Virus record (IMG/VR): IMGVR_UViG_2905894795_000003
From: an uncultured virus (IMG/VR IMGVR_UViG_2905894795_000003)
Taxonomy: Duplodnaviria > Heunggongvirae > Uroviricota > Caudoviricetes
Reading direction: 5' to 3' (one strand)
Length of the DNA stretch: 20,000 nucleotides
Part shown: positions 2,811-17,526 of the stretch, piece by piece
How positions within the stretch are numbered: the stretch's first letter is position 1
Layout of the letters: the number at the start of each line of letters is the position of its first letter
Translations under genes and position numbers: made by a program
Notes under the pieces: generated by a model
What the model was told of the DNA's origin: nothing
The model's database searches: none
Seen by the model: the letters and a program-made list of their open reading frames with translations, nothing else

Positions 2811-4471
2811 CCTCCGGAACCGAACCCACCGGATTCACCGTCGTCATAATCATCATCTATACCACCACCAGATGCCGCCCCGAGGGGAATAAACTCAAAG
2901 TTGCCCACGCTGGTTGACGCGATGGCCCACAGCATGTGCAGCGCATCCGGCCCGTCGTCATGATCGGCCATCGGAAAATGCATCAGCTGCTCACGCAGCG
3001 TGGTCAGCGCCCGGCCTATCAGGATGCGCTCGCTCTCCATAAACGGCTGCAGCGACTCAATGCGCCCTGCCTTGTCGGTGGTCGGGATCACCGCGCGGGT
3101 GGGAACCGGCACACCCGCCTTCAGGGATTCATCCATCAGGGTTTCGCGCAGAAAGTCCTGGAACTGCACCGACTCAAACGCCCACGCCACGCAGCCAAAT
3201 TCACGCTGTAGGGCGATAACGTCGGTAATGATTTTTTTCGGACGACGCACCCGGATGTCGGCCCGGACCACCTTCAGCACTCTTTTAATGCGGTGCCAGC
3301 CGCCGACCAGCAGCGCGCTGGGGTCGCCACCCCGCGTGTTGTGCTTACCCAGCGACGGGTCGCAGGCACCGAAATAAATCAGGTCGGGTTCTTCCTCATG
3401 CCACTCATGGATACAGCCATGAAATATCGCGTTTTCACCGCTGACCGGATCGTTCTGATACTCCGCATCAAAGGCGCGGGTGCCGACGCGCACGCGGATG
3501 AGCATCAGGGTCAGCAGTGGACGCGCTGACCACGAGACGCGCGACCCCTTCAGCATGGCTTTCTGGTTGCGCTTATAAAACGCATTCGCTGCCGCTTTGC
3601 CTTTCTCCCGCAGCACCGCCTCCCAGTCGTCCCACAGCTTGAGATTGGCAGGCCAGGCGAGGATCGCCTGGAAGCGTTTCGCGTTCCAGGAGGGATTTTT
3701 CATGGTCCGCGCCAGCACCGAGTCGTAATGCAGGATCGAACCAACGTAGATCACATCCAGCTTGACGCCGGGACCGCCGAGCGGCAGAACGGTGCTGTTC
3801 AGCCACTTCTCCAGCTTGTCGCGCTGCTTAGGCGTCACCACGTTTTCGTCGTTTTCGAGGTCATCCAGATGCACCAGATCGGGACGATAAGCACCATGCT
3901 TGCGCCCGCGCAGGCTCTGACCCTGACCCGCCGCCTCAATTTTGATACCGCTTGCCGTCAGGATGCAGCCAATGCGCCACACGCGGCCCTGACCGCACGC
4001 CTCCGGGTAATCCATCCACAGGGCGCGGTTGTAAAGCAGTTCCGCCTTAATCACCTCCAGCGACTCCGCCGCCTGCGTGGCGGTATCAAAGGCGATAATG
4101 ATGAATTTCTTCAGCTCCCGCACCACGCACCACAGGTCAAACAGCTGCTGGCTCAGCGTGGTTTTTGCCTCACCGCGCGGGGCGGCTATCACCTCGTTCT
4201 CACCCTCATCACTTGCGACCACCTGCGGCAGACGTTCAAACAGATACTCGTGCAGCAGGCTGGTTTCCGGGTGATGGAGGTGATGCTTAAAGTAGGTATT
4301 AACGAAGAAGCGAAACCCGGTCACCGGGTCGCTGACCTGTGACCGGCGAGCTTGTATCGCCTCCGGGCTACTGTCCAGACCACAGCTTGCGCTCTCAATG
4401 CGGTCGCGCAGCTCCCCCTGAATGCGGGCTATCTTCTCCCGAAAGGCTTTAAGCGATGATTTGGACGACAC
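2804..4471 (-). CDS. terL: Terminase large subunit (Mu gp28-like)
   Basis: Walker A APRGEAKTT, Walker B VHLDDLE, nuclease motifs ACDPS and HDDGPDAL. Confidence 0.95.
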   Translation of the reverse strand: MSSKSSLKAFREKIARIQGELRDRIESASCGLDSSPEAIQARRSQVSDPVTGFRFFVNTYFKHHLHHPETSLLHEYLFERLPQVVASDEGENEVIAAPRGEAKTTLSQQLFDLWCVVRELKKFIIIAFDTATQAAESLEVIKAELLYNRALWMDYPEACGQGRVWRIGCILTASGIKIEAAGQGQSLRGRKHGAYRPDLVHLDDLENDENVVTPKQRDKLEKWLNSTVLPLGGPGVKLDVIYVGSILHYDSVLARTMKNPSWNAKRFQAILAWPANLKLWDDWEAVLREKGKAAANAFYKRNQKAMLKGSRVSWSARPLLTLMLIRVRVGTRAFDAEYQNDPVSGENAIFHGCIHEWHEEEPDLIYFGACDPSLGKHNTRGGDPSALLVGGWHRIKRVLKVVRADIRVRRPKKIITDVIALQREFGCVAWAFESVQFQDFLRETLMDESLKAGVPVPTRAVIPTTDKAGRIESLQPFMESERILIGRALTTLREQLMHFPMADHDDGPDALHMLWAIASTSVGNFEFIPLGAASGGGIDDDYDDGESGGFGSGGW

Positions 4472-4481
4472 TTATCTGCCC

Positions 4482-4712
4482 TCAGTCCTGGCTGCGAGTA
4501 GACAGCGCAGCCTCAAGCTGCTTCAGCAACGCGGATTTTGCATCCCACACCGATTTGCCATAAAGACCGTCAGCCTGATGAATCTCGCCATCTTCAGTCT
4601 GCACCATCAGATAATCGCTCTGAACATACACACGAACGATGGTATCGGCTCGTACCGCATTGCGGTCGGTAAGTAAGATGAACTGGTTAACCGGCTTAAC
4701 AACGTCAGCCAT
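4482..4712 (-). CDS. Hypothetical 76-aa protein between terS and terL
   Basis: ATG at 4712 overlaps the terS end and the ORF fills the gap to terL. Confidence 0.7.
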   Translation of the reverse strand: MADVVKPVNQFILLTDRNAVRADTIVRVYVQSDYLMVQTEDGEIHQADGLYGKSVWDAKSALLKQLEAALSTRSQD

Positions 4713-5223
4713 ATTTTTTCTCCACGATTTGCTGAAACTCCGGCAGGACATCAAGAAAGCGCACCATCAGCGCCGGATGTCTGTCACTGAGAAAGGCCGC
4801 GAAATCCTCAACCACGCCAGCGGCCACCATCAGGCGGTCGGTCTGGGGCAGAATGCGACGGCTTGCGGCCATCATCTTGTTAAAGCCGTCCTGAAGCCCG
4901 ACCAGGCGCTTTGTATATTCATCAATAGGAAGCGCTGTACCGTCCGGGCTTCCGCGCATTTTGCGCAGCTCAGCGATGGCGAACTGGTTGTGCTCCAGGT
5001 ATTCCAGCATCAGCGCCGTGGCGATTTCCTCCGGCGCACCGGAACCGAGGCGACGCGCAGCACGCAACCTGTCCCAGTCGTCGCCGGTATCCCGTGCCTC
5101 TCTGCGCCAGCGGATCACGGTGGCCACGCCTACACCGTGCATCGGCCCCAGCACCTCCGGGGCCATGCCCTGTGTGATGTAGTCACGGCGGACCGCATCA
5201 CGCACTTCTTTGCCATGCGCCAT
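4705..5223 (-). CDS. DUF1804 / Mu gp27-like terminase small subunit
   Basis: N-terminal HTH-like MAHGKEVRDAVRRDY...ATVIRWRREA...GDDWDRLRAA; lies upstream of terL. Confidence 0.85.
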   Translation of the reverse strand: MAHGKEVRDAVRRDYITQGMAPEVLGPMHGVGVATVIRWRREARDTGDDWDRLRAARRLGSGAPEEIATALMLEYLEHNQFAIAELRKMRGSPDGTALPIDEYTKRLVGLQDGFNKMMAASRRILPQTDRLMVAAGVVEDFAAFLSDRHPALMVRFLDVLPEFQQIVEKKYG

Positions 5224-5486
5224 CAGTGACTACCCGACCCGCTGATCAGCCTGTCAATCCGCTCAGTCGTGCGCTCCATTGACGACTTGATCTCCGCCAG
5301 CATCGACATAATCTGCTCCTGATCGCGAACGGCGTCGGACTTGAGCTGATACAGCTCGCGCATGCGGATATTCTCTTTACGAAGCTCATCAATAGCGCCG
5401 TGCAGACTTTTAACCCAGTAGGTCAGGCCGCTGGCAACCAGGCCGAAAAAAAGCGTCTGTAGCGTGTCCAATGAAATTAACTCCAT
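5223..5486 (-). CDS. Membrane-anchored coiled-coil protein (Mu gp26-like position)
   Basis: One N-terminal hydrophobic segment plus a heptad-rich C-terminus; TGATG coupling to terS. Confidence 0.75.
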   Translation of the reverse strand: MELISLDTLQTLFFGLVASGLTYWVKSLHGAIDELRKENIRMRELYQLKSDAVRDQEQIMSMLAEIKSSMERTTERIDRLISGSGSH

Positions 5487-5487
5487 G

Positions 5488-5808
5488 TTATTTGCCCTCC
5501 GGCCAGAAAAACGCTTCCAGCGCTTTCAGCTTCGCCGCATTCGCCTGACACCAGGCACCATAGTCTGCTGCGTGACGTAACAGCGCTGCCGGAGGCAGGC
5601 CAGACGCCTTGCCCGCATACGCGGACGGGGCGGGCGGCATCGTGCCGACCGAGACCATCGCGCGCGGCGGCTTCATCGCCTGCTCAATGACCGGCGCGGG
5701 CGTCACCGTTACCGTATCCAAGGGCGTTTTCGTAGAGCTGCACCCCGTGAGGACCAAGCCCGTTAAAACCACAGCCGCCAGCCTTACCCGCTGTCGCATT
5801 GTCATCAC
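5488..5808 (-). CDS. Outer-membrane spanin (Rz1-like lipoprotein)
   Basis: Signal peptide with lipobox LTGC and a Pro-rich body; overlaps the i-spanin 3' end in another frame; true start may be 5799. Confidence 0.8.
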   Translation of the reverse strand: MMTMRQRVRLAAVVLTGLVLTGCSSTKTPLDTVTVTPAPVIEQAMKPPRAMVSVGTMPPAPSAYAGKASGLPPAALLRHAADYGAWCQANAAKLKALEAFFWPEGK

Positions 5809-6154
5809 TGATCGCCTTATCTATCTGCGTGCCGAGCAGCAGCCTGGCCTGCGCCAGCTCAGCCGTTTTATCCGCCAGCGTGGCCGCGAGCGCATCCGCC
5901 CGAGACTGCTGTGCCTGTTCACTCTGGCGCGCCTTAAGCAGCGCGGCGGTTGTCGCTTCACTGATACGCTGGCGCTCGTCAGAACGGGCTTTTTTCTCGC
6001 TGGCCAGCGCCACGTCACCGGCGCTTTTCGCCGCTGCGAAACCCGACTGATAACCGCTGTGACGCAGCCACCACACACTACCCGCAAGTACCGCGCACAG
6101 CAGTACACCCGGTAAAATCCGCGTTAAACACCACTTAATCAGCGCCGCGCTCAT
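5684..6154 (-). CDS. Inner-membrane spanin (Rz-like)
   Basis: Start MSAALIKW at 6154 after GAGG; N-terminal TM followed by an Ala/Gln-rich coiled coil. Confidence 0.82.
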   Translation of the reverse strand: MSAALIKWCLTRILPGVLLCAVLAGSVWWLRHSGYQSGFAAAKSAGDVALASEKKARSDERQRISEATTAALLKARQSEQAQQSRADALAATLADKTAELAQARLLLGTQIDKAISDDNATAGKAGGCGFNGLGPHGVQLYENALGYGNGDARAGH

Positions 6155-6431
6155 CCGGCTTACCTCTTGGCTTACCAGCTTCAGGTGGATCATCGTCCGC
6201 CTTGCTGTCGTGATATTTCTGGACCCCGGCATGCGCAACCCATGCACCGACGTAGACCGCCAGTGCGTCCACCGGCGCATGATTCCAGTACGCACACATC
6301 AGGACCACCGCCGAACTGACCAGCAGGGCCGTCAGCGTGGTGGCGTCCGTTGTTGAAAGCTGCCCCTGACGGTTGGAGACCAACTCCGGCAGGCGTTTAA
6401 GAAAGCCCATTGCAATGACCCCGCGCCACAT
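6135..6431 (-). CDS. Putative holin (DUF2644-like)
   Basis: GQLSTT motif, two hydrophobic segments and a charged C-tail, within the lysis cassette; start at 6431 or 6410. Confidence 0.65.
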   Translation of the reverse strand: MWRGVIAMGFLKRLPELVSNRQGQLSTTDATTLTALLVSSAVVLMCAYWNHAPVDALAVYVGAWVAHAGVQKYHDSKADDDPPEAGKPRGKPDERGAD

Positions 6432-6637
6432 CAGCGCCTCAGCCTGCGTTCCAGGCGGCAAAGCGCCTCTGGAATAAATGTCACGTACACAAGCAGGGTC
6501 GCCAATACCACTAATGAAACTGACCAGCTAAAACCGGCAGCAAAATGCCACATAAGCAAGGTAAAGGCCGAATAACCCACATTCAGAAACCACATATCAA
6601 GCCAGAGTTGCCAGCAGGCTTTCAGGTAGTCTTTCAT
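6431..6637 (-). CDS. Small two-TM membrane protein in the lysis cassette
   Basis: ATG overlaps the endolysin stop (ATGA); MKDYLKACW...RLERRLRR. Confidence 0.7.
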   Translation of the reverse strand: MKDYLKACWQLWLDMWFLNVGYSAFTLLMWHFAAGFSWSVSLVVLATLLVYVTFIPEALCRLERRLRR

Positions 6638-7023
6638 GCCGGATACGCTGCAAAAGGAAGCTGGAAATGCGCACCATCTTTGAGCGTGGTCCAGCTGCCG
6701 CCCCATTCAACAGGGATAGAGAGATCGGCAGACGCCTGTTTAAAGGCGATATTAATCTGTTCATAGAGGGACCATTCCCATGACACCTGACCGCCCACAT
6801 ACGCCACGACGTCTACTGCATGGCCGGTAAGATGACGGCTGTTCAGCGTCTGACTATGGCCACCGGCGACCATCTCTTTCTGGCGTTCGGCGGTGCGTAA
6901 GCCTTCGGTGATGCCGAAATCAACAGATGAAACCTCAAGCGCATGGCGAACCAGCTTCACCAGGTCAGGATGCACACCCTGCATATTGTTTTCGCTGCGC
7001 TGACTGAATTTGAAAGAAGACAT
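6634..7023 (-). CDS. Endolysin, peptidase M15 (L-Ala-D-Glu endopeptidase type)
   Basis: EGLRTAERQ, SRHLTGHAVD, WGGSW and DGAHFQL motifs. Confidence 0.93.
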   Translation of the reverse strand: MSSFKFSQRSENNMQGVHPDLVKLVRHALEVSSVDFGITEGLRTAERQKEMVAGGHSQTLNSRHLTGHAVDVVAYVGGQVSWEWSLYEQINIAFKQASADLSIPVEWGGSWTTLKDGAHFQLPFAAYPA

Positions 7024-7057
7024 AAAAAACCCTCACGTTGCTGTGAGGGTCATTGTG
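7024..7057 (-). promoter_or_regulatory. Terminator-like hairpin sequestering the endolysin RBS, overlapped by a probable late promoter -10 (CACAAT)
   Basis: - strand reads CACAAT-G-ACCCTCAC-AGCAAC-GTGAGGGT-TTTTT-ATG. Confidence 0.6.
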
Positions 7058-7105
7058 CGGGGATGATAAAGGAGGCCGTACTTACAGGGGTGGAGTGGCA
7101 GCACA

Positions 7106-7555
7106 TCAGAACAGGCGCTGCTGAACCTGCGGCTCGTCGGGCCTGTTGCGCTCTGCCAGCAGGTGCCACGCCCAGCTGTCGCCGAACCCGTAGCGCGGCG
7201 CGGTCAGCATCAGGGCAATACTCAGCGACTTACCCTCATTCACCAGCGCATCGACGTCGCTGTAAAAGCAGCGGTTGCGGTACTCACGCAGCGCCGTGGC
7301 ACAGCGGGGAATGACCAGCGTACTGTCGCCCCCGAAGTGCTGCATCATTTTCTGGGTATTTTCCTCCCCAATCGTTTCACGCAGCAGCGCCAGACGCGGC
7401 TCGCCGTGGCTCATGATGCCGCGCCCGACCGGGAAACGGGCACCGCCGAACCGCTCGACCAGCTTTTGCGTCGCCTCAAATCCGATCACGCTGGCCAGCT
7501 CGCGCGCGGTATCCGGCAGCAGGGATGCCATCGACTCCAGATCAAACCCGCTCAT
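7106..7555 (-). CDS. mor: Mor/C-family transcription activator
   Basis: LLPDTARELASVIGFEATQKLVERFGG...FGGDSTLVIPRC..ALREYRNR; located between gemA and the lysis genes. Confidence 0.88.
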   Translation of the reverse strand: MSGFDLESMASLLPDTARELASVIGFEATQKLVERFGGARFPVGRGIMSHGEPRLALLRETIGEENTQKMMQHFGGDSTLVIPRCATALREYRNRCFYSDVDALVNEGKSLSIALMLTAPRYGFGDSWAWHLLAERNRPDEPQVQQRLF

Positions 7556-7953
7556 TACAGCCTCCCGTGACGTTTCGCGTCAACAATCAGCATCTGCATC
7601 ACCTGGCGAACCTGATCGTCGTTCAGCCACTCAACCGGCTTTTTCTCACCCAGCATGCGCTCAACCACGCCATCCAGATAGCTCCACGGGCGACCGGCCT
7701 CGGCCAGCAGCGCCTCAATCTTTGACAGCATACCTTTACGCCCTGACGCCACACGCGGACGGCGGCCATGTGACGCAGACGGCGTAAAGCCCGCGCTGCG
7801 CATCCAGGCGACGACCTTTTCAAGTTCAGCCTCTGAGCACGCACTGGCCGAACGGTGCCCGGTCAGTCGCGCCAGCACGTCGCGATAGGTTTCATCGTCC
7901 CAGCCGAGCCGCGACTTGCCGGTATGGACGATGCGAATAAGGTTACGCTTCAT
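7555..7953 (-). CDS. gemA: GemA / Mu gp16 (DUF1018) family protein
   Basis: Start MKRNLIRIVHTGKSRLGWDDETYRDVL after GAGG; KIEALLAE..RPWSY motif. Confidence 0.9.
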   Translation of the reverse strand: MKRNLIRIVHTGKSRLGWDDETYRDVLARLTGHRSASACSEAELEKVVAWMRSAGFTPSASHGRRPRVASGRKGMLSKIEALLAEAGRPWSYLDGVVERMLGEKKPVEWLNDDQVRQVMQMLIVDAKRHGRL

Positions 7954-7998
7954 AGGGAGCACCTCAAACGAAGGAGAAAAACAGGAAGCCCGTAAACG

Positions 7999-8025
7999 AA
8001 AAAAGCCCCTCAATGAGGGGCTTTT
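7999..8025 (-). terminator. Intrinsic terminator, probably bidirectional
   Basis: AAAAGCCCCTC-AAT-GAGGGGCTTTT inverted repeat with a T6 tail on the - strand. Confidence 0.8.
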
Positions 8026-8068
8026 AAGGGCTGATTCAAATTGTCACACCAGTACTGCAGTGGGTGAC

Positions 8069-8097
8069 ATTGGATCACGGTCGAAATTGATTGTCAA
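8069..8097 (-). promoter_or_regulatory. Possible sigma70 promoter
   Basis: TTGACA (8097-8092), 17-bp spacer ending in TGA, then TCCAAT (weak -10 with extended TG). Confidence 0.45.
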
Positions 8098-8135
8098 CAA
8101 TATTACGTAACACCTGAAATATTTGGTGTACAACC

Positions 8136-8543
8136 CTACTTACAAGGATACATTCTCCTTAGAGTATTTGAGTAAACTGCAGCCACATCCAGTTTCATGT
8201 CTGGGTTTTCGCCAGCAAGATACAGCTCAATAAATTGGTTAACCAATTTATCGTTCATTAATAATGTGTCGGGTACACAAGCGTAGGGTTTAAAGCTCTT
8301 ATCCTCCCTGTGGATTACTACATCACTCATCCTCGAATAGCCTTCACCTTCTGCAACACCCTCCAAATAGAAAACTAAAGCCACTTTAGCTGACTGATTA
8401 TCTTTATTATTAATATCATAGGCCTTGCTCCTTATATCTACATATTTTTCCAATGTCATTGCAGAGACCGCATGGAGACTTAGACTCATTAAAGCCAAAC
8501 TAATAAAGACACTTCTAAAAACTGTTTTTCTCATAAGCTTCAT
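8136..8543 (-). CDS. Secreted moron protein, Rap1a/Tai-like
   Basis: Sec signal peptide; Y..GVAEG...C.P...YL...P...A....L...YPC pattern; visibly AT-richer than its neighbours. Confidence 0.65.
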   Translation of the reverse strand: MKLMRKTVFRSVFISLALMSLSLHAVSAMTLEKYVDIRSKAYDINNKDNQSAKVALVFYLEGVAEGEGYSRMSDVVIHREDKSFKPYACVPDTLLMNDKLVNQFIELYLAGENPDMKLDVAAVYSNTLRRMYPCK

Positions 8544-10824: not shown

Positions 10825-11349
10825 TCAGGCTCCTGCAGTCTGCTCAAACGGCGTAACAGCGAAGTCCTCGATACCGCTGCGGACCGTTATACCCGCTACA
10901 CCCTCAACAGCTTTAGGTTCATTGAGGATGGCGTCTTTGTTAATTTCTTCCTTCGTGCGGATGAAGCGGTCCATACCCAGTCGGCGCAGCGTTTCCAGCA
11001 CGCTATCCACACCACGCACCGCGACTGATGGCGGACGATTACGCCACTCGACCTTGCCGGTGATCAGACTGGCCGTCTTGGTCTTGCCGTTCTGCGTCAG
11101 CTCATCACGATGCGCCTCACACCAGCCCTGAATCCCTTTGCTCAGGGTTTCAATATCCTTTTTAAGCACCTCCAGTGCTGGTGCATGCTGCTCGGTGATT
11201 TTCCCGATTGCGTCGTTCATTTCGCCTTCGGTACGCGTCAGCTCGCGCTGCAGGTCACCCAGCTTTTTAATATCCCCGATCACATCTTCTTTGCACTGCG
11301 GAACGTAGACCGCCGCAACGGCTTTAATGCGCTTTGGTTTAGTTGCCAT
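10825..11349 (-). CDS. gam: Mu Gam-like host-nuclease inhibitor
   Basis: WCEAHRDELT..GKTKTASLITGKVEWRNRPPSV and FIRTKEEINKDAIL. Confidence 0.93.
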   Translation of the reverse strand: MATKPKRIKAVAAVYVPQCKEDVIGDIKKLGDLQRELTRTEGEMNDAIGKITEQHAPALEVLKKDIETLSKGIQGWCEAHRDELTQNGKTKTASLITGKVEWRNRPPSVAVRGVDSVLETLRRLGMDRFIRTKEEINKDAILNEPKAVEGVAGITVRSGIEDFAVTPFEQTAGA

Positions 11350-11599
11350 AATTATTCACTCCTTTAACGCCAAATTTTTCTATGCAAGCCCATGTGCAAT
11401 GCTCCATCAGCCGCGCCCCAAACTCATGTAACTCGTCCCGAACATCTTCTATGGCCGTTCCGCCTGTAACCTGGTAAATGACTTTGCCGGCCTCATCACG
11501 CCCCATCTTCACCGAGACATTAACCAGCCACCCATTAAGCGAATCATCACTAACGACGTCCGCTGATTGCTGCTTATCCGACATAATGACTTTCTCCAT
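11339..11599 (-). CDS. Hypothetical phage protein
   Basis: Overlaps both neighbours; start at 11599 or 11584. Confidence 0.65.
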   Translation of the reverse strand: MEKVIMSDKQQSADVVSDDSLNGWLVNVSVKMGRDEAGKVIYQVTGGTAIEDVRDELHEFGARLMEHCTWACIEKFGVKGVNNYGN

Positions 11600-11783
11600 T
11601 AATACATTTTGCTTTCAGATGCACCTGATTAAACTGCGCCGCCAGGGCCATCGCATAACTCACAGTACTGGTGGCAATATTCATTTCAGACACGGTGTGA
11701 TTATTGGGATCGACTTTGATTTCCGGGTTAACCACAAAACCCGACTCACCTAACTTAACGTCAATGAATATTCGAACCGTCAT
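11574..11783 (-). CDS. Hypothetical phage protein
   Basis: Start MTVRIFIDVK after GAGG. Confidence 0.7.
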   Translation of the reverse strand: MTVRIFIDVKLGESGFVVNPEIKVDPNNHTVSEMNIATSTVSYAMALAAQFNQVHLKAKCINGESHYVG

Positions 11784-11997
11784 TTTCAGCCTCGCGTTTC
11801 CGACTCTCAGTGCAGGCAGGGCAACCACACCTGGTTTGCATCGCTCCGCCAGCGCGCCGGGCCACAGCCGACCTGATAACCCCGATAATCATGTCCATGT
11901 CCGCCTCCTCACGATAAGTGCGCTCGCCAGTCCCTTTAATATCAAACTCCATTCGGTCACCATGCTCAGTAATGACCACTTCAAGTTTTGCCGCCAT
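11761..11997 (-). CDS. Hypothetical phage protein with C-terminal CGCPAC
   Basis: Start MAAKLEV two bases after the upstream stop. Confidence 0.72.
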   Translation of the reverse strand: MAAKLEVVITEHGDRMEFDIKGTGERTYREEADMDMIIGVIRSAVARRAGGAMQTRCGCPACTESRKREAENDGSNIH

Positions 11998-11999
11998 AA

Positions 12000-12230
12000 T
12001 TACCCCCAGATAACCGTACAACCCTGAATAACCGATGTAAGCACCCGCTGCCGTACACCATTCACAACTTCCAGCACCTCGAACACTGAGCAGGAGACGC
12101 CACCTGCAGGTGGAATAGCCCGTATAACTGGCACAACATGATTTTTCTCAAACCCGATAATCCGGCCACCCTGAGCACAGATTGCCGATAGCGCCCGCGA
12201 ACGGCGGCAGTTAATAACCTGTTTTTCCAT
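12000..12230 (-). CDS. Hypothetical Mu-like early protein
   Basis: Start MEKQVIN; ends GCTVIWG; tightly packed in the operon. Confidence 0.75.
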   Translation of the reverse strand: MEKQVINCRRSRALSAICAQGGRIIGFEKNHVVPVIRAIPPAGGVSCSVFEVLEVVNGVRQRVLTSVIQGCTVIWG

Positions 12231-12232
12231 GA

Positions 12233-12736
12233 TTAACCCCTGAGTTCCTGAATGCATTTATCCAGCTTTTTAAGCATCGCCATCTGTTCGACGTGCGCTT
12301 CCAGCAAGGCCGAGAGAATCTTCTCGAACTGATTATTTTGCGTTTTTGCGCGGCGCAACCGGCGACAACTGCGTGCCGTTCTGCGCATCTCACGCCACAG
12401 CGAATTCTCACTACGAATGGCAGACCTGCAGCGGCAATTGTCTGGAATGGCTGGGAATTCACCCATCATCGGGTAATGAGCAGACCGGCGTGTGCGTCCG
12501 TGCAGAGCACGCTCGATCCGGCCTTTCTCTGCAGGTTTCATAGGTGGCAAGGCTGATTGTGATGCGGGTACATACGCAGCCTCACAATAAAATTTGCCAT
12601 GCCAGTACACATCGACACGACTACTGGATAATCCGCAAATAACATCCACATACCGACCATCAAGAGACGCCAGTGAAGGGTGAAAGTAATCACGTTTATT
12701 ACTTTCCACGAAACCGCGTTTAACTTGAACCTTCAT
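12233..12736 (-). CDS. Protein with a Mu-transposase C-terminal-like domain and a basic tail
   Basis: N-terminal ~55 aa align by eye to the C-terminal beta-barrel region of the phage's own transposase; AAGGA RBS. Confidence 0.72.
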   Translation of the reverse strand: MKVQVKRGFVESNKRDYFHPSLASLDGRYVDVICGLSSSRVDVYWHGKFYCEAAYVPASQSALPPMKPAEKGRIERALHGRTRRSAHYPMMGEFPAIPDNCRCRSAIRSENSLWREMRRTARSCRRLRRAKTQNNQFEKILSALLEAHVEQMAMLKKLDKCIQELRG

Positions 12737-12775
12737 ACTATTTTCCTTATTTAATTAGACTGTGTATTTCAGAAC

Positions 12776-13192
12776 TTAATTTATTGATGCGTGACGTCCA
12801 AAAGCACTGGCGCAATCCCTGATTACCCATTCACGGCGACCTTCAGGGTAAATACGTTCAGCCCATACCTGCCTGTTGCGAAGCTCTTCTCTTGCCGCCA
12901 GCAATATCTGTCGGAACTGCTGGCGCGAGGTGATGCAGCCCCAGTGAACCACCCGCATTTCACTTTCCCACTTATCTACATTCCAGTTATGACGACCAAG
13001 CCCCCTGATTGCATCAGGCAGCCCACGGTGGTCGCGCATAAGCTGATAAGAGTCGACGGTCACGTAGGGCAGCAGTTCATCATTGCGGCGGGCGCGATAA
13101 ATGCAGATATATTTGTCAATCATTAACGGTGAGTGGTGACGTTCAGAAATACGATTCAGCGCGTCAGTTTCTTTTTTAACCAGAGTTTTCAT
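12776..13192 (-). CDS. Hypothetical phage protein
   Basis: 138-aa ORF with a GGGG RBS, bounded by a repeated 39-bp leader. Confidence 0.75.
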   Translation of the reverse strand: MKTLVKKETDALNRISERHHSPLMIDKYICIYRARRNDELLPYVTVDSYQLMRDHRGLPDAIRGLGRHNWNVDKWESEMRVVHWGCITSRQQFRQILLAAREELRNRQVWAERIYPEGRREWVIRDCASAFGRHASIN

Positions 13193-13236
13193 GCTGTTTT
13201 CCCCACATAATTAATCTGAATATTTCAGGGTGATAT

Positions 13237-14163
13237 TTAAAAGAAAGTTTTTTGCTTAATTAACATCTTCCCGTATTTCTCAATAACCAGAGGTGATACA
13301 GGCAGATTCCGCGTCTTACTGGCGCGAATCACTGACCGCGCCAGCTTGTACATGCGGCGATAATTCCCTCCCGACTCTTTTCTGAATGCCGCTAAAACCT
13401 CATCCGTGAGCACATAATCAGGCAGTCCGCCTTTGAGAATATTGGTCAGAATGTCGTTAAAGTCGGACTCTTCACTCAGTTGCTTCATATCATCCAGATC
13501 GAGCGCAAGACTGACGCGGCTATACAGCTGCTCGTATTCCCCTCTGGACCCCATCAGATTGAGCAACAGACGCGGCATGCCCGCCAGTAACAGGCCGCAG
13601 TGTGCGCAGTCCTGAATGCGCCGCATAACCTCCAGCGCACGATAGGGCAGCAGTTCCGCCTCATCGATCATCACAATCCAGCCTGTCCCCTGAAGCGCCT
13701 CTATGCACCGCTCACTGAGTTCATGGATTGTGCCGCTGGTCTTCTTCACCCGTAGTTTGATGCACAGCTCCTGCAGCAGCACTTTGGCGGTGTAACCCGG
13801 ATCGGCCTCAATCAGTATCGCCGCGCTGTCGCGCAGGGCGTACTCTCTCAGCGCCATACTTTTACCTATACCGGCAGCGCCATAAATCACGCCGATATCA
13901 CAGTCAGAATGGGTAATGTCGATAATTTCCAGCACCGTTTTTGCCAGCGTGGTTGGCACAAATTCCACATCACCATGCAGACGCTTCGCCTCACGAAACA
14001 AAAAATCACGTAATTTAGCTTCGATAGTGCTGATATTGCCCTTATAGGTGCCACTCAGATATTGCGATACGGTTGCTGTACTTAAATTCGATTTAGCGGC
14101 GACCTGTTTCTGGGTGTAGCCGCTCCCCTCCATAAACTGGATAACATTTTCTTTAATGCTCAT
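13237..14163 (-). CDS. B: MuB-like transposition AAA+ ATPase
   Basis: N-terminal HTH, Walker A GAAGIGKS, Walker B MIDEAE, QLYSRV. Confidence 0.95.
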   Translation of the reverse strand: MSIKENVIQFMEGSGYTQKQVAAKSNLSTATVSQYLSGTYKGNISTIEAKLRDFLFREAKRLHGDVEFVPTTLAKTVLEIIDITHSDCDIGVIYGAAGIGKSMALREYALRDSAAILIEADPGYTAKVLLQELCIKLRVKKTSGTIHELSERCIEALQGTGWIVMIDEAELLPYRALEVMRRIQDCAHCGLLLAGMPRLLLNLMGSRGEYEQLYSRVSLALDLDDMKQLSEESDFNDILTNILKGGLPDYVLTDEVLAAFRKESGGNYRRMYKLARSVIRASKTRNLPVSPLVIEKYGKMLIKQKTFF

Positions 14164-14175
14164 TTAAATTACCTT

Positions 14176-16212
14176 TTAATAATTTCCGGCTTTTTTAGCG
14201 GCGAACTTTTCCTGACTGGCGAAAATATAAATCTCTTCCTCCTGCTCAATCGGCTCCGGCGCAGCAAACATGCTAATATCCAGCGGCTCGCGGTGCTCGA
14301 TGGCGGGCCGCAGGGAGTCTTTCGCATCCTGTATCACCGCCTGACCGCGCTTAATCTGACGCTGGGCACGTTCGTTAAGTGCTTTCTCAACCCGCGTTAA
14401 CGGAACAGGTGCGTTTGTATTTCCGTTCCAGATGGCCGTACAGACGAACGTGCCATCCAGCCTGCGGATATAAACTTCTTTAGCATCCAGAGGATTAAAG
14501 GCGACACGCACTTTTTCCTGGTCAACCTCTATCAGCTCTCTAGCGTAGTAATTATTCGTACCCAGCTGAATCCAGCCGCGTGCCGCTGTGCGGGTTTCCT
14601 CCGGCAGGAACATATCGTGCAGCTCGTCCGCCGTCAGATACTCAATATCGTCACCCTCTGTTTCAAGAGCGTGCCTGCGGTATGCCAGGGGTGACAGGTG
14701 CTTACCATTCACCTTTGGCAGCTCACTATGCTCATGAGACGTGTTATAGGCGTCGATCTCCGCCTGGATGGCCACCGTCAGTGCCTGCCAGTCTGGTATC
14801 AGCCCCAGCGTCCGCTTTTGCTCGGTGGTCAGCTCTTTACCCTGGCGCAGAGCGTTGGTCAGACTGACCATTTTTTTACCCATAACCCGCTGATGCTCAG
14901 GATCAACGTTATGGCCATTGTAAGTGGCGAACTGCCGTGCGATAGCAATCGGCACCACACCATTAAGACGCTCAATAATCCCGCGCGCCTGCGGGTTGCC
15001 CGGAATACCGGTCATGTGGTTTATGCCCATGCGGGGAAATATCCCGGTGATATCGGCATCGAGCATATTATTTTTTTCACCGCCGCCATTATCGGAATAT
15101 ACAAACAACGGTTTACCGTATTTCTCCATGCCGTGACGGTAAGCCTCCGCTACCGCAAAACGGTTCTCTGATAAAGACAGGCTCCACCCGACAATTACGC
15201 GTGTCCGACCATCAATAACCAGCGTCAGCTCCGGCGTGAACGGACGGTTGTAAACCGGGTGCAGCACCTTCATATCCAGCGACTTACCATCCGCGATCCA
15301 GATGCCATTTACCGGCATCACTGACCAGTCGCGCTTGCTGTAGACGTCATACGCTCTGGCGGCAGAACCACTGACCCGACCCTGCATGCGTTTATAAAGC
15401 GGCTCTTTCTTCAGCATGCGCCGCACAATGTCGTACGAGGGCATGACCGCCAGCACAGCAGGCTGATCGTGATATTGATCTTCCCACCACTTTTTGAATT
15501 TACGCCACGTCGCCTTAATCGAATCACCCGTGGGCGTGCCGTAATAAGACTTGAACGCTATCCACCAGGCACAATCATCAGGCTGCAGCTTTTTGGGCTG
15601 GCCCGGAGCCAGTAAAACCAGACGTTCCAGGCTGTTTGTGGTGGAGTGATAAAGCGAGTACCAGTCCTGCAGGCTGCGAACGCTGATACCGGCACGCTTT
15701 CCCTTACGGGCGTTGGCCAGTTCAGCCGCCTGCTGCAGGCGCTCAGACCTGAAACCCATGCGCGACTGCTCAGCGACATACTCAACCGCCCCCGTGCGGG
15801 TTGCTTTAATCCCCTCAAGCGAACGCAGGCGATCAACCTCCATCACCAGCACACACCGCGCATCAGCAATTCTGCGCTGTTTCTCAGTCAGCCGGTCCGT
15901 CTCACGCTTCGCCAGCGCCGGGCATTCCTGCATCAGAACCAGTTCCTGCTTAGCCTTGACCGCAACACTGACCGGCGCAACGACCCCGGCACCTTCTGAT
16001 GATTCAATCACCTGTTTCATCAGGCGCTGTTTCACCACTTCCCGAGCCGCATCCGGCAGACAGTCAATGTGATACTCAAAGGCTTTAGTACCTTCTCGGC
16101 GACGCACCAGCTCAGGCAAGCCCGCAGCACGCTTATTCAGAGTGAATCTCAGCCCCTGAAGCGTACCCGGCAAACCCGGCAGGCCCATTAACTCATTCAC
16201 TGTGACAAACAT
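14176..16212 (-). CDS. A: MuA-like DDE transposase
   Basis: N-terminal Mu-type HTH (EYHIDCLP); catalytic WIADG, YSDNGGG and GIIER all intact; 678 aa. Confidence 0.96.
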   Translation of the reverse strand: MFVTVNELMGLPGLPGTLQGLRFTLNKRAAGLPELVRRREGTKAFEYHIDCLPDAAREVVKQRLMKQVIESSEGAGVVAPVSVAVKAKQELVLMQECPALAKRETDRLTEKQRRIADARCVLVMEVDRLRSLEGIKATRTGAVEYVAEQSRMGFRSERLQQAAELANARKGKRAGISVRSLQDWYSLYHSTTNSLERLVLLAPGQPKKLQPDDCAWWIAFKSYYGTPTGDSIKATWRKFKKWWEDQYHDQPAVLAVMPSYDIVRRMLKKEPLYKRMQGRVSGSAARAYDVYSKRDWSVMPVNGIWIADGKSLDMKVLHPVYNRPFTPELTLVIDGRTRVIVGWSLSLSENRFAVAEAYRHGMEKYGKPLFVYSDNGGGEKNNMLDADITGIFPRMGINHMTGIPGNPQARGIIERLNGVVPIAIARQFATYNGHNVDPEHQRVMGKKMVSLTNALRQGKELTTEQKRTLGLIPDWQALTVAIQAEIDAYNTSHEHSELPKVNGKHLSPLAYRRHALETEGDDIEYLTADELHDMFLPEETRTAARGWIQLGTNNYYARELIEVDQEKVRVAFNPLDAKEVYIRRLDGTFVCTAIWNGNTNAPVPLTRVEKALNERAQRQIKRGQAVIQDAKDSLRPAIEHREPLDISMFAAPEPIEQEEEIYIFASQEKFAAKKAGNY

Positions 16213-16213
16213 A

Positions 16214-16465
16214 TCAGGAGACCTTGCGCATATAGCTTTCGGTTTTATACCGACTTGGCCAAATCAGCTCCGGCGACATTCCGAGAGCATCCGCAACAAT
16301 CTGTTGCTGAGGCTTCGACGGTGTACGCAAAACAGATTTCAATGAGCCAGCCGAATAACCATTTCTGCGACCAAGCTCAGCAAGTGACAGGCCACGCTTG
16401 TGCAGCTCACCTTTGATATCTTCAGGGTGCATATCGACATGCAGATCTTCTTTTCGATTCATCAT
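16214..16465 (-). CDS. ner: Ner-like transcriptional regulator
   Basis: DMHPEDIKGELHKRGLSLAELGR...IVADALGMSPELIWPSRY. Confidence 0.93.
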   Translation of the reverse strand: MMNRKEDLHVDMHPEDIKGELHKRGLSLAELGRRNGYSAGSLKSVLRTPSKPQQQIVADALGMSPELIWPSRYKTESYMRKVS

Positions 16466-16482
16466 TCAACTATCCTAAAAAG

Positions 16483-16630
16483 TTATCCCGAGGGATAAGC
16501 CACAGGTTGTCTCTTCGGATAAAAGTATTGATCCATATTTCCCTCATGTAAAGCAAATTTCCCACTTAGTTTTCGATTTTTGCCTTTAGTGACCTCAATT
16601 TGAATCAATGCATTTAAAATCAATCGGTTA
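16483..16630. promoter_or_regulatory. Lysis-lysogeny switch / enhancer region: palindrome, early promoter and IHF site
   Basis: TTATCCC-GA-GGGATAA 16483-16498; - strand TTTACA(16552-16547)-17 bp-AATACT(16529-16524); ATTTCCC at 16537 and 16557; IHF consensus AATCAATCGGTTA 16618-16630. Confidence 0.65.
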
Positions 16631-17243
16631 TGTGGAAAAGAAAATGGAATATCGGAAAGAAAACAAATTTGCTTTTGATGAGGACAGAAAAGAAAACTTC
16701 ATCCGGCGTTTAAAATCTGTAATTGGTGAGCGGAGCGTAAGAGCTGCTGCTAAGGAGTGGGGGCTATCATTCTCAACATTGAATAACTACATTACCCGTG
16801 GAACAGAACCATCATTCGTGGCTATGCAGGCTATAGCTTTTGCTGAGGATATTTCTCTTGATTGGCTAGCATTTGGCGCGAATGAATCAAATAAGAATCA
16901 ACCAGAGCGAAGCCTGATGCATGATAATAACTCCAACGACAAGAGCGGTAGTGTGGACAAAGAACATCTCCGCACCGCCTGGGCGACTGCGTTCGAATTT
17001 ATGGGGAAGGCTGAGGCTGAAGCTCTTTTGAAAATCATCATTAACGGCGGTGCACGTAGCATCATCAAGCTAGCCGAACATGATGCAACACTCGAAGAGG
17101 CCTTTATGCTACTCCCGCTGGAGTTAAAAGAAAGAGCAATAGATCTCATTGATGCGTATGCAGAAGCCAAAAAAGGGGCACCTGAAGAGGGTGATCTGAG
17201 CAACACTGCCAGCCCAGCATCTGATAAGAGGCAGGCTAGCTAA
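16608..17243 (+). CDS. Prophage repressor with an XRE/CI-type HTH (start may be 16644)
   Basis: SVRAAAKEWGLSFSTLNNYITRGTEPS...ISLDWLAFG; divergent from ner. Confidence 0.88.
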   Translation: MHLKSIGYVEKKMEYRKENKFAFDEDRKENFIRRLKSVIGERSVRAAAKEWGLSFSTLNNYITRGTEPSFVAMQAIAFAEDISLDWLAFGANESNKNQPERSLMHDNNSNDKSGSVDKEHLRTAWATAFEFMGKAEAEALLKIIINGGARSIIKLAEHDATLEEAFMLLPLELKERAIDLIDAYAEAKKGAPEEGDLSNTASPASDKRQAS

Positions 17244-17378
17244 GTGAGCATAGGCTGGTACTAATCAGTTTGTAATAGTTTCGGCTTATGCTTAATTTGA
17301 CTTAAGCCAAGCGTGTAAGCGATTTCTTAAAATCTGTTTAAACGCCTTTCAAACTCACTTAAACCACAATCATTCGAA

Positions 17379-17526
17379 TGCAAAAAAGATCGCAAAAAAA
17401 TCATTTTTCGGTCATTTTATTGCGACTAGTGCAAAATCCTTGAATCCTTCCAATCCCACGCCGCTGAAGGGTTGGCGTTGATTCCACATGTTCTCCGATC
17501 AGTGCAGAAATGATTCTTACCCCATA
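17379..17526. repeat. Prophage left end with putative transposase-binding repeats
   Basis: TGCAAAAAAGATC (17379), TGCAAAATCCTTG (17430) and TGCAGAAATGATT (17503) in the same orientation, just before the host junction. Confidence 0.6.

Follow-up and report, generated by a model that had tools for sequence, protein, structure and literature searches.

A predicted stand-alone, non-catalytic homolog of the transposase II-beta/III-alpha module in the early region of a Mu-like prophage

Several non-catalytic regulators of transposition, such as Tn5 Inh, IS1 InsA and P-element KP, are made from a transposase gene and keep its DNA-binding or dimerization part. In Mu-type transposition, the least understood interface is the handling of target DNA and of the B ATPase by the C-terminal modules of the transposase. 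Passages of PMC5357137 describe III-alpha of the transposase MuA as a positively charged helix, two copies of which pair in the U-turn of the target DNA, contact the target and give much of the affinity for it, and state that III-alpha is required on non-catalytic MuA subunits for assembly. Passages of PMC11208146 report that the IstA barrel docks on the AAA+ ATPase IstB and stimulates its ATPase activity, that TnsB engages TnsC through II-beta and that, in IstA, contacts to donor DNA come from the helix that follows the barrel; a structure of the MuA–MuB complex is named as future work in a passage of PMC11292022. In the open-access PMC and bioRxiv literature, our searches turned up no account of a transposable phage with a stand-alone II-beta/III-alpha gene. 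Here we analysed a 20,000-nucleotide (nt) stretch of DNA from an uncultured virus (IMG/VR record IMGVR_UViG_2905894795_000003; hereafter the window), which spans the early region of a Mu-like prophage and a portion of its late region, in minus-strand orientation. Within it, a 167-residue open reading frame (ORF) at 12233-12736 (-), P0001, is by sequence comparison and predicted structure a stand-alone, non-catalytic homolog of the transposase II-beta barrel together with the start of the III-alpha basic helix. Throughout, A and B denote the transposase and the ATPase of this prophage.

P0001 is like MuA II-beta/III-alpha (PF09299) in about 81 columns of homology, in its predicted barrel fold and in the junction motif that leads into a basic helix. 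It is unlike MuA in being a separate gene that lacks the DDE core, the end-binding N-terminal domains and a recognisable III-beta, and it alone adds an unrelated Arg-rich helix and a heptad tail. The predicted fold is also that of the barrels of IstA (IS21) and TnsB (Tn7/CAST), and a gene for a B-type AAA+ protein precedes P0001 at a distance of one or two genes; however, the IstA and TnsB barrels work within the transposase, contacting IstB or TnsC, whereas P0001 is a separate protein. With Tn5 Inh, IS1 InsA and KP it shares the concept of a partial transposase without catalysis that possibly acts in trans. Unlike regulators of the Tn5 Inh type, it has a gene of its own, the second one downstream of B and A but for orf138 and B between, shares 25% identity with A, evolves separately and keeps only the target- or regulator-facing C-terminal module. 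Among named proteins, Pantoea stewartii 'Mu transposase C-terminal domain-containing protein' (P0170, 164 residues) belongs to the same family; its cluster representative, P0009, is 50% identical to P0001, and the homolog in the corresponding position of P. stewartii locus L003 shows 47% identity. The name of P0170 is an automatic domain name, and no paper on the protein was found in the literature searched; the stand-alone II-beta/III-alpha gene described here would belong among the transposase-derived non-catalytic proteins. A 73-residue 'Transposase' of a metagenomic phage (BFVD A0A8S5MQA4) matches the P0001 barrel (E 4.4e-5, 32% over 63 columns, TM 0.76 by target) and is limited to the barrel, with neither basic helix nor tail; it could represent a further stand-alone barrel or only a fragment of a gene.

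The features on which the comparison turns are as follows.
12233..12736, minus strand: P0001, 167 codons plus stop with an ATG start; stand-alone II-beta/III-alpha-like protein
14176..16212, minus strand: A, Mu-type transposase of 678 residues (Mu-transpos_C 3.6e-15, residues 533-592; HTH_Tnp_Mu_1 1.6e-7)
14347..14595, minus strand: segment of A (residues 540-622) homologous to P0001 residues 2-83

The original prediction, made from the DNA letters and their translations, had aligned P0001 with a segment of the prophage's own transposase. The peptides that it quoted are present in the two translations, and the alignment holds in three comparisons. BLASTP matched P0001 residues 7-84 to A 545-618 with 20 of 81 positions identical (25%; E 0.001). 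Aligned to A by Smith-Waterman, the first 85 residues scored 52, a value that 1 of 2000 shuffles reached (shuffle mean 30.6, standard deviation 4.3). Profile-profile comparison by hhalign, with 11 members of the P0001 family against 12 A proteins, aligned P0001 2-83 with A 540-622 at a probability of 95.4% (E 1.7e-8). A hidden Markov model (HMM) of the P0001 family was then scored on 60 transposases, namely the A of the window and 35 relatives, the longest frames of 22 loci, and the A of L003 and of a further locus, L027. Mu-type A proteins scored 30-42 bits, with alignments reaching profile positions 83-88. The longest frames of PF09299 loci without a Mu-type A relationship, which we take to be TnsB-like, scored 0-19 bits on the barrel alone. 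Beyond the barrel, the P0001 family and Mu-type A have a junction motif in common, a proline followed by EK..ER and then an arginine run, and in A this motif is the start of the III-alpha region. The first ~83 residues of P0001 thus derive from a Mu-type A gene, as an old and diverged descendant. MuA of phage Mu itself matched the family weakly (probability 38.5%, residues 512-560). Closer relatives of A occur in Salmonella, Yokenella and Erwinia prophages, with 65-87% identity over the C-terminal 159 residues.

The Pfam model PF09299 (Mu-transpos_C), which had been suggested as a check, gave 14.0 bits (E 0.051) on P0001 and did not reach the gathering cut-off of 21.7 bits; the check therefore fell short for P0001 itself and succeeded for its relatives, with matches in four of six family members at E <= 1 (best 4.9e-6). 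P0008, another relative, has a precomputed PF09299 label. NCBIfam and PADLOC gave no match for P0001, and PHROGs gave solely phrog_13110 (E 0.034). As the original prediction had stated, a DDE core is missing: Pfam detected no rve/DDE domain in the 167 residues, in which the barrel starts at residue 1, and no HTH_Tnp_Mu domain, although A has one. When the family profile was run over 401 order-level and 351 family-level genomes, matches were confined to long transposase frames or their fragments, at profile positions 1-102. The C-terminal half of P0001 had no similarity to A, with 757 of 2000 shuffles equalling its score and no second profile-profile match. Because the C-terminal 84 residues resemble a transposase in none of the tests, P0001 is a composite gene, not a simple fragment, and because A retains its own III-alpha segment, P0001 is an addition, not part of a split gene.

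An AlphaFold2 model of P0001 was built from a six-member alignment (mean predicted local distance difference test score (pLDDT) 69.7). Model and alignment together divide the protein into five parts.
12569..12736, minus strand: residues 1-56, II-beta-type beta-barrel (Mu-transpos_C), pLDDT 80-89
12485..12568, minus strand: residues 57-84, basic segment of net charge +5 that aligns with the first part of III-alpha of Mu-type A, motif P..P.EKGR.ER...R.RR, pLDDT < 50
12410..12484, minus strand: residues 85-109, Pro/aromatic linker HYPM..EFP..P with RCR motif, predicted disordered, pLDDT 33-41
12338..12409, minus strand: residues 110-133, Arg-rich helix (9 K+R, net +7)
12236..12337, minus strand: residues 134-167, amphipathic heptad-like helical tail, pLDDT 86-92, two sequence variants among relatives

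The original prediction had also expected a barrel resembling that of MuA, and structural superposition agrees with it. In VIA re-alignment, on which the fold assignment rests instead of on Foldseek E-values, the predicted barrel matched TnsB II-beta with a Z-score (Z) of 9.6 (root-mean-square deviation (rmsd) 1.3-1.8 Å, 55-58 residues), MuA 493-560 with Z 7.0 (rmsd 1.8 Å, 56 residues, 29% identity) and IstA with Z 6.4; rmsd over all three transposases was 1.3-2.4 Å for 55-58 residues. Unrelated barrels reached Z <= 4.5 and SH3 domains about 3 with the same predicted barrel. Foldseek against the PDB returned no row at E <= 0.001; its top 12 rows were TnsB/IstA transposases, and MuA ranked 14, 15 and 21. 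Residues 59-104 were poorly modelled, and the assignment of residues 57-84 to the III-alpha start follows the sequence alignments, in which hhalign extends to residue 83 and the HMM alignments to A cover positions 5-88. In the linker, Y88, M90, E93, P95, P98, R102, C103 and R104 are invariant in the six-member alignment; in the Arg-rich helix, L113, R115, E116, R118, R119, T120 and R122 are. The Arg-rich stretch and helical tail noticed earlier are both recovered, with RRTARSCRRLRRAK at residues 118-131 within a predicted helix spanning 110-166. P0001 has a net charge of +15 and an isoelectric point of 10.0, and its basic residues cluster in 57-84 and 110-133.

In bZIP-like architectures, a basic helix is continuous with a dimerizing heptad repeat. 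The predicted helix 110-166 of P0001 may recall this arrangement, with 9 K+R in 110-133 followed by the heptad-like tail; in the best heptad register over residues 110-167, 9 of 16 a/d positions are L/I/V/M/F. Structure searches with the C-terminal half returned generic long-helix matches alone, and the ESM Atlas had no feature match for it. The tail (residues ~134-167) occurs in two unrelated sequence types (...EKILSALLEAHVEQMAMLKKL... and ...KEKFDVRPALVNIREG...), which set L003 and L027 apart from the window and loci L091 and L004. Tail type is independent of barrel type, of A/B type and of kil type.

Just after the barrel, P.KP.EKGR.ER (12530-12568, minus strand; residues 57-69+) weakly resembles GNPQARGIIER at A residues ~403-416, a stretch of the catalytic region that we assume to contain the DDE glutamate. 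HMMER domain scores of -4.4 to 2.9 bits (i-E 0.27-45) indicate that this resemblance is probably due to chance.

The remaining genes and signals around P0001 are listed here.
16608-17243, plus strand: c repressor gene
16524..16552, minus strand: candidate early promoter, sigma-70-like, upstream of ner
16214-16465, minus strand: ner
13237..14163, minus strand: B, MuB-type AAA+ transposition ATPase of 308 residues (AAA_22 1.3e-17, N-terminal HTH_3 1.9e-5)
12776..13192, minus strand: orf138 (P0004), 138 residues, between B and P0001
12744..12748, minus strand: P0001 ribosome-binding site AAGGA, ATG 7 nt further on
12000..12230, minus strand: kil homolog (phrog_2679, E 3.6e-15), conserved start MEKQVINC
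10825-11349, minus strand: gam

The early operon thus has the order c, ner, A, B, orf138, P0001, kil ... gam, and beyond gam lie a Mor/C-type activator, endolysin, spanins, large terminase and portal. Relatives of B carry the name 'DNA transposition AAA+ family ATPase'. P0001 is co-oriented with ner-A-B, and the gaps flanking it and orf138 measure 39-44 nt; a simple consensus scan found no promoter-like or terminator-like site in them. The candidate before ner is the sole minus-strand promoter-like site in 11500-17500 (the scan found 3 sites against 6.6 expected by chance). With such short gaps and this one site before ner, P0001 looks like a member of the early operon, and the original prediction had likewise placed it in the early region. 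Upstream of the start codon, TAAGGAAAAT...ATG is identical at the homologs in L091 and L004. At the other end, the P0001 stop is followed after 2 nt by the kil ATG, and this junction is the same in all five loci for which gene context is available (window, L003, L004, L027 and L091); its conservation suggests that P0001 and kil are translationally coupled. The longest kil ORF begins at 12257, within the P0001 3′ end, and the ATG at 12230 is conserved in the four other loci.

The P0001 family is very small, comprising about ten clusters. A word-indexed search gave 188 candidates, of which E <= 0.01 keeps six proteins including the query (50-75% identity, 153-167 residues). An exhaustive profile search of 1.84 billion representatives gave eight at E <= 0.001, seven of them 100-166 residues long; the eighth, P0012 (898 residues), is a six-fold repeat protein that matches only profile positions 16-51 and was considered unrelated. 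The distant relatives are short (100-131 residues), and no gene context was found in viral contigs for four of them (P0011, P0013, P0014 and P0015). Members with organism names come only from P. stewartii, Erwinia typographi and Candidatus Erwinia dacicola, and the Erwinia relatives are labelled hypothetical at NCBI. The five loci with context are the window, L003 (P. stewartii), L004/L006 (a Pantoea symbiont), L027, whose homolog is the protein that NCBI assigns to E. typographi, and L091 (metagenome). At every one of them the homolog sits between B and kil, in four directly after B (34-58% identity), and L003, L004, L027 and L091 encode intact homologs of 150-167 residues. At L004/L006 (3077-5962), A is split into ORFs of 552 and 113 residues and B into ORFs of 79 and 240 residues, and kil and gam still match their counterparts in L091, an intact prophage, at 100% and 98.9% identity.

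Protein identities between the window and the other loci differ sharply from gene to gene. Against L003 they are 86% for A, 86% for B, 47% for P0001 and 47% for kil (gam left out); against L027, 83% for A, 58% for B, 34% for P0001, 49% for kil and 74% for gam; against L091, 41% for A, 31% for B, 58% for P0001, 45% for kil and 94% for gam. Judged from these sequences, P0001 diverges much faster than A and B, and its divergence does not co-vary with that of either. The family HMM gave 31.3 bits on the window's own A against 35.7-39.7 bits on A proteins from another bacterial family. Since the adjacent A scores no higher than these and P0001 does not co-vary with it, P0001 would not be a recent copy of its neighbour; the comparisons identify it as an old, shuffled accessory module. 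The original prediction had called P0001 a stand-alone paralog of the transposase barrel, and of this the non-catalytic II-beta/III-alpha homology stands; descent by recent copying of the adjacent A is not supported.

Within the gene, divergence is mosaic. In the comparison of the window with L091, identity is 47% in the barrel, where synonymous divergence (dS) is saturated, and 76% in residues 110-167, which have a dS of 0.56 and a ratio of nonsynonymous to synonymous divergence (dN/dS) of 0.23. Between L091 and L004, the flanking genes ner, kil and gam have 98.6-100% protein identity (dS 0.05-0.27, dN/dS 0-0.13); the P0001 homologs of the same two loci differ at 58%, with a barrel dN/dS of 0.54. 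A dS of 1.8 in the C-terminal half of this pair suggests that that half was replaced, and the L004 homolog has ten codons of the III-alpha-like part deleted in frame. All measured P0001 segments have dN/dS < 1 (0.13-0.54), the reading frame is open throughout at all five loci, and the six closer members have 35 invariant columns, some of them in motifs beyond the barrel. The homologs are thus not mostly degraded; degradation would have spoken against the original prediction, and the conservation it had looked for is present. In the L091/L004 comparison, diversifying selection and weak constraint are not separable, because one of the two prophages is decaying; fast mosaic evolution fits a conflict role with diversifying selection and weak constraint with recombination equally.

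Guided by these features, we tentatively propose that P0001 is a non-catalytic, strongly basic accessory protein that may operate in trans during target capture, on DNA, on B or on both. By analogy with the described systems, a target-capture role in trans appears the most likely one because the barrel and junction helix are kept, an Arg-rich helix and tail are added, and the protein would be made alongside A and B. Through its heptad-like tail, P0001 would dimerize or form larger oligomers. Its barrel and its basic helices would bind DNA, preferring bent or B-coated target, and/or the B ATPase. P0001 would then compete with or supplement the transposase's own II-beta/III-alpha module at target capture, and the result would be a tuning of the site and efficiency of phage transposition.

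A number of observations weigh against this proposal. The lack of co-variation with A or B argues against a tight partner-specific interface, and the known contact of MuA with MuB, as given in passages of PMC3562280 and PMC3362531, is III-beta, not II-beta. The barrel itself is weakly basic (net +2), and two relatives, P0008 and L004, lack some or all of the III-alpha-like segment. In phage Mu, kil comes directly after B and P0001 has no counterpart. Related A genes occur in 18 of the 351 family-level genomes and in 141 records of the phage collection (all < 60% identity), and none of these genomes or records carries P0001. P0001 is therefore dispensable for Mu-like phages of this kind. Further searches extend the picture: no full-length or stand-alone P0001 relative was found in the 401 order-level and 351 family-level genomes sampled, a P0001 relative was not found in the plasmid collection, and neither tblastn of the phage collection with P0001, P0011, P0013 and P0015 nor megablast of 11000-16500 gave a match. 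In four genomes with an A of 50-56% identity, B is followed by other small genes, and orf138, P0001, kil and gam of the window type are all lacking. Its absence from these related phages indicates a rare, dispensable accessory at the junction of B and kil.

The same data bear on other explanations, of which the link to kil suggests the strongest. P0001 may have been exapted for a task outside transposition, as a factor of the semi-essential early region that binds nucleic acids in general or helps to take over the host, together with kil or through a host target. Its transposase ancestry would then be purely historical; we consider this somewhat unlikely. The conserved stop-2 nt-ATG junction ties P0001 to kil in 5 of 5 loci, both genes are 47% identical between the window and L003 against 86% for A and B, and P0001 shuffles with the kil-gam side regardless of A/B type; in addition, the conserved HYPM..EFP..P linker may resemble a short partner-binding peptide motif. 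However, the homolog follows the A-B pair at every locus with context and is found nowhere else, it keeps the II-beta and III-alpha junction motif of Mu-type A beyond a generic barrel, and similarity to other families is absent in Pfam, PHROGs, NCBIfam, PADLOC and the profile search. By comparison, it is very unlikely that P0001 is a remnant without function, left when the 3′ end of an A gene was partly duplicated. The small size of the family, the 100-131 residues of its distant relatives, the in-frame deletion in L004 and the origin of one named member in an insect symbiont would all suit a remnant, yet frame, start, ribosome-binding site and stop-ATG coupling are kept in 5 of 5 loci at 34-58% identity, the 35 invariant columns include non-barrel motifs, dN/dS is 0.13-0.54 in the segments measured, and the C-terminal 84 residues, which are not derived from a transposase, mark a composite gene.

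The fast mosaic evolution could also reflect conflict between phages. P0001 would in that case be a poison or decoy subunit directed against superinfecting or co-resident Mu-like phages, or one limiting the phage's own late transposition, by entering or capping transposase assemblies or by stripping B from DNA; truncated-transposase inhibitors of other elements, such as Tn5 Inh and P-element KP, would be its analogues. The barrel dN/dS of 0.54 between L091 and L004, against 0-0.13 in ner, kil and gam, is in line with such a role, and a free module could interfere in principle, given the need for III-alpha on non-catalytic MuA subunits described in PMC5357137. This explanation is nevertheless unlikely: P0001 belongs to the early operon and has no separate promoter-like site, so that expression in the lysogen, which exclusion needs, is not obvious, and the broken A and B of one of the compared prophages mean that relaxed constraint explains the raised dN/dS equally well. 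A related and similarly doubtful proposal is that P0001 is a fast-diversifying decoy of II-beta/III-alpha that acts on B or on target capture and thereby alters target choice or immunity, or sabotages rival Mu-like phages. If true, a decoy of this kind would represent a new class of transposition-interference factor and would give direct evidence that the Mu-type barrel contacts B, as the IstA and TnsB barrels contact IstB and TnsC.

Whichever explanation applies, P0001 provides in natural form a II-beta barrel with the III-alpha junction and a probable oligomerization tail, and hence a ready probe of what that module does. Should P0001 modulate or poison transposition, a separately encoded, domain-level regulator would join the known transposase-derived inhibitors as a new player in transposable-phage conflict; should it leave transposition unaffected, a transposase domain would have been recruited to another early-phage task.

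A survey of PF09299 gave 119 matches in 96 of the 401 order-level genomes, and only three of them fell in frames shorter than 250 residues (199, 91 and 81 residues). One of the three comes at the end of a run of ORFs on one strand (217, 195 and 193 residues) that resemble a split longer gene; of the other two, one adjoins similar pieces and one has no ORF of >= 70 residues over it. None of the three looked like an intact stand-alone gene or had the P0001 architecture. The ESM Atlas contained several clusters of short proteins, some of whose members have PF09299, and these are leads only (scores <= 0.85). At two loci, L058 (genome G390, 5128-8201) and L059 (genome G312, 4384-5884), runs of short same-strand ORFs surround Mu-transpos_C matches; from the order of the ORFs, they give the impression of broken transposon genes, possibly Tn7-like.

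The gene between B and P0001, orf138, is present only in the window and is missing between B and the P0001 homolog in L003, L027, L091 and L004. Pfam, NCBIfam and PADLOC assigned it to no family, PHROGs gave phrog_3690 at E 0.0098, and viral contigs contained no relative; its single-sequence fold had a pLDDT of 42.6, too low for use. The gaps on its two sides (12737-12775 and 13193-13236) have a common ...CTGAAATA..CAG..TAATTA... string, which also occurs after B in L091. With this junction string repeated on both sides, orf138 looks as if it had been inserted as a cassette.

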